Assembly (NCBI GenBank): GCA_018268135.1
Contig: JAFDXD010000121.1
Span: 14,953 to 78,952 of the forward strand
DNA from: Bacteroidota bacterium
GTDB lineage: Bacteria > Bacteroidota > Bacteroidia > Chitinophagales > Chitinophagaceae
DNA length: 64,000 nt
Direction of reading: 5' to 3'
How positions within the stretch are numbered: the stretch's first letter is position 1; each line of letters starts with the position of its first letter. The translations under genes and the position numbers were made by a program. Of the stretch, positions 3,165 through 44,525 are shown piece by piece. The notes under the pieces were generated by a model that was not told the DNA's origin, did no database searches, and was given only the letters and a program-made list of their open reading frames with translations.

Positions 3165-4709
3165 ATGCCTTATTTCGACATAAAGATTCCAAAATCTATT
3201 GCAAGGGCTTTAAAGCTGCCGGTGAGTGATGCCAGGAGGCAGCAATTGAAAGTATTAAAAAAATTATTGAAGAAAGCCCGGTTTACACAATTTGGGCAGC
3301 TATATAAATTTGATGAAATACTATTAAGCAGGCATCCTGGCAAGCGGTTTCAGCAAATAGTTCCTACCTACAATTATAGTAAAATATATCAGGAGTGGTG
3401 GTACAAAACACTGGAAGGCATACCCGATGTATGCTGGCCGGGAGTAATAAAATATTTTGCCTTAAGCAGTGGCACAAGTGAAGCAGCAAGCAAATATATT
3501 CCTATTACAAAAGAGTTGATAAGGGGCAATACTATAACCAGCTTTAAGCAACTACTTAGCCTTACCAGGTATGAAGATGTACCTAAACGAGCAATAGGTA
3601 AAGGCTGGCTAATGCTTGGCGGTAGTACCCAGTTGCAAAAAGGCCCTACCTACTATGCCGGCGACCTTAGCGGCATTCAACAAAAAAATATACCATTTTG
3701 GTTTTTAGGATTAGGGCTTTATAAACCTGGCAAAAAAATAGCAAAAGTAAAAGACTGGTCAACCAAGTTAGAAGAAGTTGTAGAAAATGCACCTAACTGG
3801 GATATTGGTTTTATAGTGGGTGTACCGGCTTGGTTACAGCTTTGTATTGAAAAAATAATAGAGCGATATAAATTAAACAATATACATGAACTGTGGCCCA
3901 ACCTTGCTTTTTATGTACATGGAGGTGTAGCCATGGAGCCCTATAAAAAAGGATTTGAAAAACTATTGGGCAAGCCCATTACTTACATAGAAACCTACCT
4001 GGCAAGCGAAGGCTTTTTGGCATATCAAAGCAGGCAGGATACCAGGGGGATGCAATTGTCGCTAAACAATAATATCTTTTTTGAATTTGTACCTTTTGAT
4101 GATGTAAACTTTGATGCAGAAGGTAATATGGTGGACAACCCACAGGCGTATATGATACATGAAATAGAGGAAAATAAAGATTATGCAATTTTAATAAGCA
4201 CCAATGCCGGCGCCTGGCGTTATGCCATAGGCGATACCGTTAGGCTTACAGATAAAGAAAAATGTGAGATCATCATTACCGGTAGAACCAAGCATTTTTT
4301 AAGCCTTGTAGGCGAGCATCTAAGTGTGGACAATATGACAAGGGCCATAGAAATGGCATCGGAAGAATTGAATATTTTTATTCCGGAATTTACAGTTGCC
4401 GGCGTACCCCATGGCAATTTTTTTGCACATGAATGGTATGTTGGCACTAATGATAAAGCAGATGAAAAAGCCCTGGCAAAAATTATTGATGATAAATTAA
4501 AAGTGCTAAATGATGATTATGAAGTAGAACGAAGACATGCCCTTAAAGCTGTTACTGTAAAAATATTGCCCGAGCAAATATTTATGGATTTTATGAATGC
4601 AAAAGGAAAGGTAGGAGGCCAGCATAAATTTCCAAGGGTTTTAAAAGGTAAAATGCAGGATGAATGGAAATCTTTTCTTGCTAAGCATTCATTGGATAAA
4701 AATATTTAA
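3165..4709 (+). CDS. GH3 (auxin-responsive promoter) family acyl-adenylate-forming enzyme
   Basis: 514 aa. LSSGTSEAASKYIP adenylation motif and overall layout typical of bacterial GH3-family proteins common in Bacteroidota. Confidence 0.7.
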   Translation: MPYFDIKIPKSIARALKLPVSDARRQQLKVLKKLLKKARFTQFGQLYKFDEILLSRHPGKRFQQIVPTYNYSKIYQEWWYKTLEGIPDVCWPGVIKYFALSSGTSEAASKYIPITKELIRGNTITSFKQLLSLTRYEDVPKRAIGKGWLMLGGSTQLQKGPTYYAGDLSGIQQKNIPFWFLGLGLYKPGKKIAKVKDWSTKLEEVVENAPNWDIGFIVGVPAWLQLCIEKIIERYKLNNIHELWPNLAFYVHGGVAMEPYKKGFEKLLGKPITYIETYLASEGFLAYQSRQDTRGMQLSLNNNIFFEFVPFDDVNFDAEGNMVDNPQAYMIHEIEENKDYAILISTNAGAWRYAIGDTVRLTDKEKCEIIITGRTKHFLSLVGEHLSVDNMTRAIEMASEELNIFIPEFTVAGVPHGNFFAHEWYVGTNDKADEKALAKIIDDKLKVLNDDYEVERRHALKAVTVKILPEQIFMDFMNAKGKVGGQHKFPRVLKGKMQDEWKSFLAKHSLDKNI

Positions 4710-39579: not shown

Positions 39580-40284
39580 TTACTCCTGGTTTTCAGTTTG
39601 TTTTAAAAATTGTTGTAAGGCCTCATCCAAATCCGGTAGGGGAGTAATTGGCAGGCTGAATTTTAAATAATATATTTTATTGCTTTGGGCAATATCGAGG
39701 CCCTCGTAATGTGTACGAATTTTTAATTCGGGAGAGGGAGCTTTTGCATATACATCATCGCAGTCTGCCTCAAGTGAAAGAGAGTAAAGCTCAATCACTT
39801 TTTTGGTAAAAAGATAGAGAGCTGTAGAGTCTGTTTTTAAATGAATACATCCATTGGGTTTAAGTACTTGCTGGTAAAGCCTTAAAAATCGTGGATGGGT
39901 TAATCTTTTTTTTGCTTTAGATGTTCGTAATTGTGGGTCGGGAAAGGTGATCCAAATTTCATCTACTTCTTTTGGTGAAAAGTAAGCCGGCAGCATTTCG
40001 ATTTGAGATCTTAAAAATGCAACATTGGTTAAATGGTTATCCAGCGCTTTTTTGGCGCCAAGGTACATTCTGTTGCCTTTGATATCTACACCAATATAAT
40101 TATTGTGAGGGTGCAATTGAGAAAGCCCAATACTGTATTCGCCTCTGCCACAAGCCAATTCTAAAATAACAGGGTTTTGATTGTTAAAAAAAATATGCCA
40201 ACGCCCCTGCATATTTTGAGGGTATTCCAATACGTTGCTAAACTGCTTTATTTGGGCAAAACGAAATAATTTTTTTTGAGCCAT
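39580..40284 (-). CDS. trmB: tRNA (guanine46-N7)-methyltransferase
   Basis: LELACGRGEYSIGL SAM-binding motif, NYIGVDIKGNR and IWITFPDPQ motifs. ATG at 40284 preferred over the TTG at 40302. Confidence 0.85.
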   Translation of the reverse strand: MAQKKLFRFAQIKQFSNVLEYPQNMQGRWHIFFNNQNPVILELACGRGEYSIGLSQLHPHNNYIGVDIKGNRMYLGAKKALDNHLTNVAFLRSQIEMLPAYFSPKEVDEIWITFPDPQLRTSKAKKRLTHPRFLRLYQQVLKPNGCIHLKTDSTALYLFTKKVIELYSLSLEADCDDVYAKAPSPELKIRTHYEGLDIAQSNKIYYLKFSLPITPLPDLDEALQQFLKQTENQE

Positions 40285-40310
40285 GAGGCTGCAAAGATAC
40301 AAAGGGAGAA

Positions 40311-40340
40311 AAATAAGAAACCCACTCTTGTAAGAATGGG
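40311..40340 (-). terminator. Intrinsic terminator closing the tRNA-like RNA, 26 nt upstream of the trmB ATG
   Basis: Minus strand: CCCAUUC-UUACAA-GAGUGGG (7 bp, one G-U) followed by UUUCUUAUUUUU. Confidence 0.6.
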
Positions 40341-40346
40341 TTTTTT

Positions 40347-40543
40347 AAAGCTGCTGTAGGGGAAGGGTTCGAACCTTCACGAGGCAGTTAGCTAAAGTAC
40401 AAAGTTCGGTGGTCGACCCCGGTCGCATTGCTGCGGCTCTATACTCCGTTTATCCTGTTACCCTCACCCCCGAGACAAGGGGGCATGTCTGCCAAAAATT
40501 TCATCACCCCACAGTATAACCAATCTTTATTGGTTTGGTTTGA
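40347..40543 (-). ncRNA. Unclassified tRNA-derived/tRNA-like RNA: cloverleaf-type helices with an ~88-nt insertion at the variable-arm position
   Basis: Canonical T-arm GAAGG-UUCGAAC-CCUUC (40378-40362). 7-bp acceptor-like stem UGUGGGG/CCCUACA (40513-40507 with 40361-40355). 5-bp/7-nt anticodon-like hairpin with loop UUGUCUC (40483-40467). Junction spacing is tRNA-exact. The block is GC-richer than the flanks, followed by a terminator, with an upstream TATTTTTG box. The 5' end is uncertain. Confidence 0.45.
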
Positions 40544-40548
40544 TAACA

Positions 40549-40556
40549 CAAAAATA
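40549..40556 (-). promoter_or_regulatory. Candidate -7 promoter box (TATTTTTG) for the tRNA-like RNA
   Basis: Matches the Bacteroidota TAnnTTTG consensus on the minus strand, about 35 nt upstream of the acceptor-like stem. No clear -33 TTG. Confidence 0.25.
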
Positions 40557-40665
40557 AAGTAATTTCCCTGAATTTTAAAAATATTTCAATAAAAATTTTG
40601 AAATTATAGAAATTATTCAAATATTTGTAAAATATATTAAATACTAACTAAAAAAGATTGCGAAA

Positions 40666-41142
40666 ATGGGAGCTAAATTAAATCTTGACAAACTTGATTT
40701 GCAGATCATCAATGCCATGATGGATAATGCTGAAATTTCTTACGCCGAATTGGGCAAAAAATTATTTGTAAGCGGTGGTACCATTCATGTACGTATAAAA
40801 AAATTGCAAGAACTAAATATCGTCAAAGGTACGAGATTAACTGTAGATTTAAAACTATTGGGCTACGATATCACTGCATTTGTAGGGATATATTTAGAAA
40901 AAAGCTCATTATACGATTCAGTTGCAAAAGATCTGATGAAGATACCCGAGATTATTCGCCTGAATTATATTACAGGTAACTATAGTATGTTTATAGAAAT
41001 AGTTTGTAAAGACATTTCACAATTACGAAATGTATTGCATGACGAACTTCAGAAAATAAAAGGGATTGAAAGGACAGAAACTTTTATTTCTTTAGATGAA
41101 GGTTTTGTAAGAAATGTACCCGTAGCGCCTGTAGAAGAATAA
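40666..41142 (+). CDS. Lrp/AsnC family transcriptional regulator
   Basis: 158 aa. N-terminal HTH (LDLQIINAMMDNAEISYAELGKKLFVSGGTIHVRIKKL) plus a C-terminal RAM-like domain. Confidence 0.8.
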   Translation: MGAKLNLDKLDLQIINAMMDNAEISYAELGKKLFVSGGTIHVRIKKLQELNIVKGTRLTVDLKLLGYDITAFVGIYLEKSSLYDSVAKDLMKIPEIIRLNYITGNYSMFIEIVCKDISQLRNVLHDELQKIKGIERTETFISLDEGFVRNVPVAPVEE

Positions 41143-43800: not shown

Positions 43801-43897
43801 TCAGTATTAAGTATTTTAATATCAAATTTTTTTAACGCTTTTTTTATGAGGCCCAAGCCTCGCAAATTTGTTTTGTGTTGATTCTACCCAATCCTAT
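43801..43897. repeat. MITE-like dispersed repeat, copy A (degenerate left end)
   Basis: Shares ttaacgcttttt..atgaggcccaagcctcg.aaatttgttttgtg...attct.cc.aatcctat with the copies at 56221-56350 and 59944-60056. Confidence 0.6.
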
Positions 43898-44525
43898 TTT
43901 CTTTTAATATTTTTAAAAACTCTTTTTGAGAAATCATCTCTGCGCCCATACTTTTTAAATGGGAGCTGTACACCTGGCAATCAATCAGCGAAAATAATTT
44001 GCTCTGGCAAAGCCATACCAACGCTGCTTTTGAAGCATTGCTAACCTTGCTAAACATACTTTCACCGCAAAATACTTTATTAATTTTTAAGCCATATAAG
44101 CCGCCAACAAGCTTTTGCTGTGCCCACACTTCTACACTCTGCGCCACACCAATGTTATGCAAAATTAAGTAAGCTTTTTTCATTTCATTTGTAATCCATG
44201 TGCCGCCCTGCCCTTTTCTAAAAACCGTACTGCAGTTTTCAATCACTTCTTCAAAAGCAGTATTCATTTTTATTTCAAAAGTTTGCATACTAATTATTTT
44301 TTGCATGCTCTTGCTTACTTTAATTTTTTCAGGAAAAAGCACAAACCTCTCATGCGGCGCATACCAGCACACAGGCTCTCCATCGCTATACCATGGAAAA
44401 ATACCATTGTTGTATGCCAGTAATAACCTTTCCTTGCTCAGGTCGCCACCAATGGCCAACAATCCATCTTCTTCTGCCAGCGAAGGCTCAGGAAAAATTA
44501 TTCGTTCATCTAATTGAAAAATCAT
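43884..44525 (-). CDS. aat: Leucyl/phenylalanyl-tRNA--protein transferase
   Basis: 213 aa. GLLAIGGDLSKERLLLAYNNGIFPWY and the GESMFS motif. Confidence 0.85.
   Translation of the reverse strand: MIFQLDERIIFPEPSLAEEDGLLAIGGDLSKERLLLAYNNGIFPWYSDGEPVCWYAPHERFVLFPEKIKVSKSMQKIISMQTFEIKMNTAFEEVIENCSTVFRKGQGGTWITNEMKKAYLILHNIGVAQSVEVWAQQKLVGGLYGLKINKVFCGESMFSKVSNASKAALVWLCQSKLFSLIDCQVYSSHLKSMGAEMISQKEFLKILKENRIG

Follow-up and report, generated by a model that had tools for sequence, protein, structure and literature searches.

What is encoded in the DNA between trmB and its divergent neighbour, a gene for an AsnC-type regulator? The two genes lie in a stretch of 64,000 nucleotides (nt) from a Chitinophagaceae bacterium (Bacteroidota; assembly GCA_018268135.1, contig JAFDXD010000121.1, positions 14,953 to 78,952), referred to here as the window, whose own numbering is used below. 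An earlier look at the letters alone (the sequence-only reading) had noticed a tRNA-shaped block with a long insertion directly upstream of trmB and had taken it for a stand-alone tRNA-derived small RNA, a tRNA-Asp gene disrupted by an insertion or, its favourite, a tRNA-mimic leader or attenuator of trmB. Our comparison identified the block as a new, widespread variant of tRNA-like non-coding RNA, belonging to an RNA family of Bacteroidota and their phages that lies outside Rfam 15. The overall explanation that we favour, with a probability of roughly 0.55, is that the block is an independent gene whose product would be matured like a tRNA, bound and probably charged by aspartyl-tRNA synthetase (AspRS), and active outside decoding, with no control of trmB in cis.

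A tRNA-like RNA with a large variable-region domain

All the cloverleaf elements of the sequence-only reading were found in place on the minus strand, as were the GC-richer block (GC content of 0.47-0.57, against 0.10-0.28 in the A/T-rich spacer on the Lrp/AsnC side), the terminator and the upstream TATTTTTG box, and no CCA was encoded after G73 C74. The RNA is about 160-175 nt long and consists of a cloverleaf and an 85-nt structured domain in the variable region. Its parts are as follows.

40355 to 40513, minus strand: tRNA-like RNA in its mature form, with position 1 at 40513 and the equivalent of position 72 at 40355 (from sequence, model match and covariation)
40513-40507 with 40361-40355, minus strand: acceptor stem UGUGGGG/CCCUACA, 7 base pairs (bp) (from sequence)
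Between the acceptor stem and the D stem, minus strand: U8 G9 (from sequence)
40485 to 40504, minus strand: D arm, with a 3-bp stem AUG/CAU (40504-40502 with 40487-40485) and a 14-nt loop containing G18 G19
40483-40467, minus strand: anticodon-like arm CCCCC-UUGUCUC-GGGGG, with a 5-bp stem and a 7-nt loop; GUC is at 40476-40474
40381 to 40465, minus strand: expanded variable-region domain, 85 nt, with helices Pa, Pb, Pc and Pd and a GNRA-capped hairpin
40465-40462 with 40384-40381, minus strand: helix Pa, GAGG/CCUC, which closes the insertion
40457-40455 with 40387-40385, minus strand: helix Pb, CAG/CUG (from covariation)
Between Pb and Pc, minus strand: internal loop GAUAAAC/GCUAA of the variable-region domain, with four invariant A residues
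40447-40437 with 40404-40394, minus strand: helix Pc, 11 bp (from covariation)
40435-40424, minus strand: GNRA-capped (GCAA) hairpin of variable length (from sequence)
40421-40407, minus strand: hairpin Pd with loop GGUCGACCA (from covariation)
40378-40362, minus strand: T arm GAAGG-UUCGAAC-CCUUC (from sequence)
40353 to 40354, minus strand: discriminator G73 and C74
40309 to 40343, minus strand: intrinsic terminator of the RNA gene, an 11-bp hairpin (40343-40318) and a U tract
40549 to 40556, minus strand: -7 promoter box TATTTTTG of the Bacteroidota type for the RNA gene, a match to TAnnTTTG

Read from the tRNA core outwards, the domain comprises Pa, a 4-nt bulge, Pb, the internal loop, Pc and a three-way junction, from which two hairpins project, the GNRA-capped one of variable length and a small one whose loop, GGGUYGACCAC, is nearly invariant. 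The body has the features of a canonical cloverleaf, namely a 7-bp acceptor stem, a D arm with GG, an anticodon arm of 5 bp and 7 nt and a T loop of the form UUCRANY, and its G18, G19, U8, A14 and A15 were invariant. Since the folding energy of the single sequence was not significant (z = -0.72 for the RNA alone and z = -2.0 with flanks), evidence beyond chance had to be comparative.

Compensatory changes support every helix

Homologues were collected in three scans. The first searched a single genome of each species for a pattern taken from the region of the D loop and anticodon arm (fixed GGCAGACATG, TTGTCTC and TGAGG); the second, run on viral contigs and metagenomes, used a pattern from the 3' half only (fixed TGACCAC, GTGRAGGTTCGA and CAGC); and the third, run on viral contigs, was free at the anticodon loop and the acceptor end. 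Because each scan fixed some bases, we relied only on elements that were invariant in scans that did not fix them. These were GUC, which the patterns of the second and third scans did not impose, and GGGUYGACCAC and ACAGC in the first. The GGUUCGA of the T arm was imposed by the second and third patterns and has independent evidence only in the first-scan set.

A plain MAFFT alignment of 108 Chitinophagaceae-type sequences served to build a covariance model, which matched the window copy with 189.8 bits (E = 6e-52) and nothing else in the 64 kilobases (kb). A second alignment, of 105 diverse bacterial and phage members (104 distinct), was made with this model. In the MAFFT alignment 98.1% of the proposed pairs were formed and 17 pairs changed on both sides; in the diverse alignment the corresponding figures were 97.0% of the cells and 32 of 43 pairs. 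For the diverse alignment, none of 500 shuffles reached the observed values, and slid partners were paired in only 45-56%. An alignment fitted to a model favours the structure of that model; here the MAFFT alignment and the ranking of column pairs by mutual information agreed with it.

The compensatory changes that had been called for as a check of the proposed stems were found in all helices. In the diverse alignment, changes on both sides affected 5 of 7 pairs in the acceptor stem, 2 of 3 in the D stem (AUG/CAU, GUG/CAC or ACG/CGU), 3 of 5 in the anticodon-like stem, 3 of 4 in Pa, 3 of 3 in Pb, 10 of 11 in Pc, 3 of 3 in Pd and 1 of 5 in the T stem, where pair 50-64 was G-C, A-U or G-U and the other four were invariant. 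The column pairs with the highest mutual information all fell in Pa, Pb, Pc and Pd, and the covariation of these helices indicates that the insertion is a folded domain. Within the acceptor stem, U1-A72 and G2-C71 (104/104 distinct rows) were invariant in the diverse alignment, and two-sided changes were seen in each of pairs 3-7, though for pair 3 in just one sequence; a few phage copies have A1-U72 instead of U1-A72. Invariant in all 105 sequences were U1, G2, U8, G9, G12, A14, A15, G34 U35 C36, G73 and C74, and C38 was present in 103. The T-loop UUCGA was also invariant, being fixed by two of the three scan patterns. Position 33 was U in 75, C in 27 and A in 3 of the 105, and position 37 was U in 102 and A in 3, with C in two further loci (L293 and L301). 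The U run of the D loop is the site of inserted hairpins in other members (L037, L101 and L116).

Several other structures were tried and rejected. The GGCAG/CUGCC pairing, which the sequence-only reading had offered as an alternative with the topology of the tRNA-like domain of transfer-messenger RNA (tmRNA), had no compensatory change and broke in 14, 10 and 2 sequences where its 3' side varies; those 3' bases covary instead with the CAG at 40457-40455, forming Pb. A GGCA/UGCC hairpin placed in the D region by RNAalifold cannot form in phage homologues (GGCAGACACACC and similar), and AUG/CAU covaries instead. A loop-loop pairing of GUC with the GAC of the GGGUYGACCAC loop was set aside: short variants of the RNA do not have that loop, no extra covarying column pairs were found and both sides are invariant. 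A kink-turn of the box C/D type from GUGAUGA was likewise dropped, the RYG within it covarying as the D stem, as was a mini tag reading frame, whose candidate codons sit inside helix Pc.

The family is widespread in Chitinophagaceae and occurs in phages

The species-genome scan yielded at least 120 loci, nearly all in Chitinophagaceae, together with one Saprospiraceae genome. Among the matches listed, the genera were Hanamia, Ferruginibacter, Sediminibacterium, Segetibacter, Niabella, Ginsengibacter, Flavisolibacter, Terrimonas and Lacibacter, and the cultured carriers include Niabella defluvii I65, Hanamia caeni BO-59, Segetibacter koreensis DSM 18137 and S. aerophilus. The second scan added at least 120 metagenome contigs and 41 viral contigs, and the third 9 more viral contigs; cultured phages (INPHARED) gave no blastn match. 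A carrier genome has one or two copies, and in some genomes the two are in tandem. The metagenome contigs that encode a TrmB identical to that of the window (L004-L011) end inside the RNA at position 1, 4, 23 or 132 (window 40513-40382), as expected if the RNA sequence is common to different genomes in the same samples; the breaks look like the assembly-graph signature of a sequence common to co-occurring genomes.

Natural short variants of 110-118 nt (L256:2041-2158, minus; L036:41-150 and 357-466, minus) have full-length copies as tandem neighbours. In these variants the tRNA body, GUC, Pa, Pb and the internal loop are retained, and a tetraloop hairpin stands in place of everything beyond, so that the inner junction and the GGGUYGACCAC hairpin are missing. 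Degenerate or partial copies, with the 5' half missing or the T arm replaced, were also seen just 3' of intact ones (L055:2800-2982, plus; L076:7226-7385, plus; L015, downstream of 405). They could be decayed duplicates, or remnants of the att sites of elements that would use this gene for integration as they use tRNA genes.

Known RNA families did not account for the block. As the sequence-only reading had asked, ARAGORN and Rfam 15 were run on the window; ARAGORN found 0 tRNA or tmRNA genes, and nothing reached the gathering threshold of Rfam, including the models for tRNA, tmRNA, Y RNA and introns. A permissive Rfam search (E up to 10) of 40200-40700 gave only chance-level matches driven by the terminator. 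ARAGORN at default settings also made no call on constructs in which the arm had been deleted or shortened in silico. No description of such an RNA was found in the full-text literature that could be searched. With high confidence, the block belongs to a family of stand-alone structured RNA genes.

The RNA gene has its own promoter and terminator

The -7 consensus TAnnTTTG is established for Bacteroidota promoters. An exact match lay within 90 nt upstream of the RNA in 110 of 211 bacterial loci, usually at a distance of 20-40 nt from position 1 (only 7% of shuffles had one), and a hairpin with a T run, resembling a terminator, followed 133 of 208 bacterial members. In the window, transcription would run on the minus strand from this promoter and stop at the gene's own terminator. 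The distance from the promoter box to position 1 requires the removal of a leader of about 15-30 nt; for the window copy the placement of TATTTTTG implies about 30 nt. Two features were observed in the predicted leaders. In many copies from Chitinophagaceae a conserved AGTTCTTA motif, which might provide a context for RNase P or a site for a regulator, sits 3-10 nt ahead of position 1. The window copy has a small hairpin there instead, AACCAAUAAAGAUUGGUU, within 40514-40548.

In phages the RNA gene is found inside tRNA arrays. A co-oriented tRNA gene lay within 150 nt in 14 of 36 phage loci, at a distance of 4-15 nt in 7 of these; tmRNA was near the RNA in some phage contigs and GOLLD in one case. 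Genuine tRNA genes in the family loci had an ARAGORN span ending in C in 144 of 149 cases, which we read as position 74, as in the RNA, on the assumption that the span runs one base past the discriminator. In addition, the covariance model weakly matches true class-II tRNA-Leu genes, whose D arm has nearly the same sequence. This grammar of a tRNA gene, with the position in phage arrays at tRNA spacing, suggests that the RNA is matured like a tRNA, which we regard as probable: RNase P would cut at U1, the 3' end would be trimmed after G73 and CCA would be completed. Of the three earlier proposals, the stand-alone tRNA-derived small RNA is the one that held, given the gene's separate promoter and terminator, the size and conservation of the family and the copies within phage tRNA arrays.

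Two side observations concern the phage arrays. Large phage contigs of 97-171 kb (L141, at 962-1384 and 3391-3776; L139; L160) carry tRNA arrays, tmRNA, GOLLD and the RNA within a few kb, and their tmRNAs have an unusually long tag, for example DVELSTMTFEDAMAFVGADYAVAA. A second tRNA-like element of about 122-125 nt is also present in phage tRNA arrays (L166:5999-6120, minus; L136:1224-1348, plus). It has an acceptor stem AGUCAGG/CCUGACU, a D arm like that of tRNA-Leu, a T arm and a long unrelated middle with no obvious anticodon arm, and it scored only 22-37 bits with the family model.

An AsnC-type regulator gene is the recurrent bacterial neighbour

Two further features lie upstream of the RNA gene in the window.

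40579 to 40627, minus strand: A/T-rich operator-like block CAAATATTTGAATAATTTCTATAATTTCAAAAT..., with the inverted repeat TTTGAA...TTCAAA, between the AsnC-like and RNA genes
40666 to 41142, plus strand: divergent gene for an AsnC-type regulator of 158 amino acids (aa), with Pfam AsnC_trans_reg and an HTH_AsnC-type domain

The best NCBIfam model for the encoded protein was AsnC, with 156 bits, which is below its cutoff of 227, and the closest solved structure was that of Escherichia coli AsnC (2CG4, E = 6e-32). A divergent AsnC-like gene (157-158 aa) lay within 700 nt of the RNA in 104 of 112 loci of the genome set and in 63 of 100 of the metagenome set, where many contigs without this neighbour are phage-like or truncated. 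The best 120 database matches of the protein were all 86-100% identical; for comparison, TrmB relatives among the matches listed, apart from the window's own protein, were 70-79% identical. No other protein neighbour stood out as recurrent in bacteria, Ro60/Rsr not having been specifically screened for.

On visual inspection, the operator-like block was seen again in the majority of the 45 intergenic regions compared. In Lrp/AsnC divergent pairs, such as asnC-asnA of E. coli, a regulator of the AsnC family is transcribed away from its target and the two have an operator region in common. Here the divergent arrangement (104/112 loci) and a conserved block with an inverted repeat were observed, and the block is a candidate operator to which a protein may bind. 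We infer from the gene arrangement that the RNA is regulated by the AsnC-like protein: the RNA promoter and the divergent gene would have a common control region, and the level of the RNA would be set by this amino-acid-sensing regulator. Phage copies do not have the AsnC neighbour, and for this reason the AsnC link cannot explain the role of the RNA in phages. As a further observation, aat, the gene for leucyl/phenylalanyl-tRNA-protein transferase, lies at 43884-44525 on the minus strand, 3.4 kb from the RNA. Its product uses aminoacyl-tRNA outside translation; the gene was not among the recurrent neighbour clusters, and its proximity is probably a coincidence.

The RNA resembles class-II tRNAs and carries an aspartate identity set

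The RNA is closely similar to the class-II tRNAs (tRNA-Leu, tRNA-Tyr and tRNA-Ser). It has in common with them the 7/5 acceptor/T architecture, a 3-bp D stem, a Levitt pair of the A15-U48 type, the T loop UUCGAAC and an extra arm rooted in the variable region. Its gene also ends in G73/C74 and is placed in arrays as real tRNA genes are, and the D arm of tRNA-Leu, GGUGGUGGAAU.GGUAGACAC, is very like the GGUGRUGAAA...GGCAGACAY of the RNA. The RNA would work like a class-II tRNA, from which it probably descends. It differs in its 85-nt arm with four helices and conserved internal loops, compared with 10-20 nt in class II, in its GUC triplet, in that U33 and a purine at position 37 are not conserved, and in being missed by ARAGORN and the Rfam tRNA model.

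Aspartate identity depends strongly on G73, G34, U35, C36 and C38 and, in bacteria, more weakly on G10 and G2-C71 (PMC9976931). In the RNA, G73 and GUC were present in 105/105, C38 in 103/105 and G2-C71 in 104/104 sequences, from which charging itself is only predicted. U33 and purine 37, which decoding on the ribosome requires, were not kept in the family, and a normal tRNA-Asp(GUC) coexists with the RNA in one phage contig (L149). We favour binding by AspRS combined with a role other than decoding, given that the aspartate determinants scarcely or never vary, that loop positions 33 and 37 are not conserved and that a normal tRNA-Asp coexists. Under this explanation AspRS would bind and probably charge the RNA, which would then act outside normal decoding. 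The two parts differ in strength: that AspRS engages the RNA is a tentative proposal, to which we give somewhat less than even odds, whereas we lean towards the view that the RNA would not be used for decoding.

Several observations weigh against this explanation. G10 was found in only 23 of 105 sequences, most bacterial copies having A, and U1-A72 replaces the G1-C72 that is conserved in bacterial tRNA-Asp, which might weaken catalysis by AspRS. Some of the invariance stems from bases that the scan patterns fixed. The large arm, G73 and G2-C71 resemble part of the serine set, and the absence of the AsnC neighbour from phage copies counts here as well. Finally, ARAGORN did not recognise the RNA as a tRNA even with the arm deleted; only with a relaxed threshold was it called a tRNA-Asp(gtc), and then in a shifted register.

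Rival functions for the RNA

The best surviving rival, though clearly the less probable, is that the RNA is an uncharged tRNA mimic, folded and processed like a tRNA, that acts as a decoy, sponge or sensor of a tRNA-binding factor. Its target might be an anticodon nuclease or another tRNA-targeting defence, AspRS or the stringent-response machinery, with the phage copies serving as a counter-measure or supplement. The phage copies stand in tRNA arrays with tmRNA and GOLLD, and such arrays were put forward as anti-defence cargo (PMC12803027). GUC is retained in the loop, whereas U33 and R37 are not, and the first three acceptor pairs are invariant except for a change of pair 3 in one sequence, which suggests specific recognition by a protein. 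Conversely, charging is the simplest explanation for the G73 C74 end and the complete aspartate set, and that bacteria keep one highly conserved copy next to a regulator of the amino-acid type speaks for metabolism rather than defence.

A more specific form of charging without decoding, which we consider rather unlikely, would make the RNA an aminoacyl carrier loaded by AspRS, with the Asp-RNA amidated by GatCAB and asparagine made or gauged on the RNA scaffold. U1-A72 with G73 is a determinant of the tRNA-dependent amidotransferase, and the U1-A72 pair and the AsnC-like neighbour together suggest a link to asparagine supply or sensing. Loading would proceed through GUC, C38 and G73, and the weak U1-A72 pair would make the Asp-RNA a substrate of GatCAB; the giant arm and the non-tRNA-like positions 33 and 37 would keep the scaffold off the ribosome, and the AsnC-type regulator would switch it on when asparagine is scarce. 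The scaffolds of tRNA-Asn and tRNA-Gln amidation, which use AspRS or GluRS with GatCAB, resemble the RNA in U1-A72 with G73 and in an anticodon reader of the AspRS type, and the link of the RNA to an AsnC-type regulator adds to this likeness. The RNA differs in its anticodon, GUC and not the GUU of tRNA-Asn. Two tRNA-Asn genes in the family loci start with G1 and not U1, which speaks against the making of Asn-tRNA by amidation in those organisms; an off-ribosome scaffold is still compatible with this.

A working decoding tRNA is less probable again. It would be an aspartate isoacceptor or a recoding tRNA, charged for example with serine through the long arm, and would read GAC and GAU, its large arm being tolerated like those of class-II tRNAs. 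The full cloverleaf, with a T loop, G18 G19 and the equivalents of U8-A14 and A15-U48, the place within phage tRNA arrays, the tRNA-Leu-like D arm and the weak model matches to class-II tRNAs all accord with it. However, C or A replaces U33 in 30/105 sequences, position 37 is a pyrimidine in 102/105 and a normal tRNA-Asp(GUC) coexists in phage contig L149. The serine set is present in part: bacterial serine identity comprises G73, C72, G2-C71, C11-G24 and a large variable region, and of these the RNA has G73, G2-C71 and the large arm; C72 is absent (A72 or U72 instead), as is C11-G24 from most sequences, pair 11-24 being U-A in 97/104 and C-G in 5/104. To our knowledge, the 85-nt arm is far larger than in any known decoding tRNA.

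The RNA stands apart from other tRNA-like genes

By its defining features the RNA is outside the families of tRNA, tmRNA, Y RNA, allo-tRNA and intron-containing tRNA. Compared with tRNA-Asp(GUC), it has G73, G34 U35 C36, C38 and G2-C71 in common and departs in U1-A72 (or A1-U72) where tRNA-Asp has G1-C72, in A10 in most bacterial copies, in the pyrimidine at position 37 and in the giant arm. The allo-tRNAs, with 8/4 or 9/3 cloverleafs and long variable arms (PMC5389517), are likewise unusual long-armed tRNA-like genes from metagenomes and phages; the RNA differs from them in its 7-bp acceptor stem and 5-bp T stem, its single invariant triplet, its far larger arm and its wide conservation with a fixed neighbour gene.

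It is very improbable that the block is a functionless tRNA-Asp gene or remnant into which an intron or mobile element has been inserted. The GUC triplet, the tRNA-like arms and the degenerate partial copies beside intact ones in L055 and L076 would suit it, but sequence conservation and covariation of the insertion extend over bacteria and phages, natural short variants keep the base of the arm, a tRNA-Asp(GUC) coexists in L149 and positions 33 and 37 depart from tRNA family-wide. The insertion also lies in the variable region and not in the anticodon loop, and no group I or group II intron family of Rfam matched it. This second proposal of the sequence-only reading therefore found no support.

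As improbable is a reduced tmRNA-like or YrlA-like molecule. Such RNAs too have a tRNA-like elbow, with a T arm and D-loop contacts, outside ordinary decoding and are carried by phages; in line with this idea, the RNA has an acceptor stem and T arm without an encoded CCA, and tmRNA genes are nearby in some phage contigs. Unlike them, it keeps all four tRNA arms, including a complete anticodon-like arm, and places its extra domain in the variable region, with no tag reading frame, pseudoknots or Ro-binding helix. Pair 3-70 is U-A and not the G3-U70 of tmRNA, and ARAGORN and Rfam gave no tmRNA or Y RNA match here, the same tools finding real tmRNAs in neighbouring phage DNA. The ends form an acceptor stem, unlike those of YrlA, and only the AsnC-like gene stands out as a bacterial neighbour, with Ro60/Rsr not specifically screened.

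The RNA is not a leader of trmB

One further feature lies between the RNA terminator and trmB.

40292 to 40299, minus strand: trmB's own -7 box TATCTTTG, 7 nt before the trmB ATG (40284) and past the RNA terminator

The proposal that the sequence-only reading had favoured was a cis-acting tRNA-mimic leader or attenuator of trmB, starting at the 40556 box and stopping at the terminator (40343-40311) or reading into trmB. In the window the RNA does adjoin trmB, its terminator ending 26 nt before the ATG; 29 of 212 family loci likewise have trmB as a neighbour, and the variable region of tRNAs is where TrmB places its methyl group. Yet trmB lay co-oriented downstream, within 900 nt, at only 10 of 112 RNA loci from genomes and 19 of 100 from metagenomes, leaving 80-90% of loci without it, and the phage copies have no trmB. 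By eye, nearly all of the 29 trmB-linked loci have, past the RNA terminator, a TAnnTTTG-type box that ends 6-9 nt short of the ATG, which implies a trmB mRNA that would be leaderless or nearly so, with its start placed from the box.

Three close relatives of TrmB were also informative, in that no RNA lies directly upstream of their trmB genes. Two of them (L001 and L002) keep the trmB box with no RNA in the upstream DNA covered (296 nt, to the contig end, in L001). In the third, a complete Ferruginibacter contig (L003, TrmB 72% identical), two tandem RNA copies (L003:1-35 and 91-260, plus) lie 2.2 kb upstream of trmB, separated from it by an opposite-strand gene of 1.7 kb for a 576-aa protein of the PLD family. 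Together, these results indicate, with high confidence, that the RNA is not a trmB leader, and control of trmB in cis is correspondingly very improbable.

Implications

Few tRNA-shaped RNAs are found outside decoding, namely tmRNA, the bacterial Y RNAs and the tRNA-like ends of viral RNAs, and each of those known opened a field. The RNA described here is widespread in soil and freshwater bacteria (Chitinophagaceae and relatives) and in large phages, and was missed by the annotation tools used. It unites a complete aspartate set with a folded arm of 85 nt and an anticodon loop that seems ill suited to the ribosome. Even if its function should prove modest, a covariance model is warranted, as the locus will otherwise pass for blank intergenic DNA or be misread as a leader. 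In E. coli, asnA adjoins asnC; if the reading as an amidated aminoacyl carrier were true, the RNA would take the place of asnA beside asnC. With the tie to an AsnC-type regulator, the idea that bacterial tRNA mimics may serve as aminoacyl carriers or as sensors of amino-acid status becomes directly testable.

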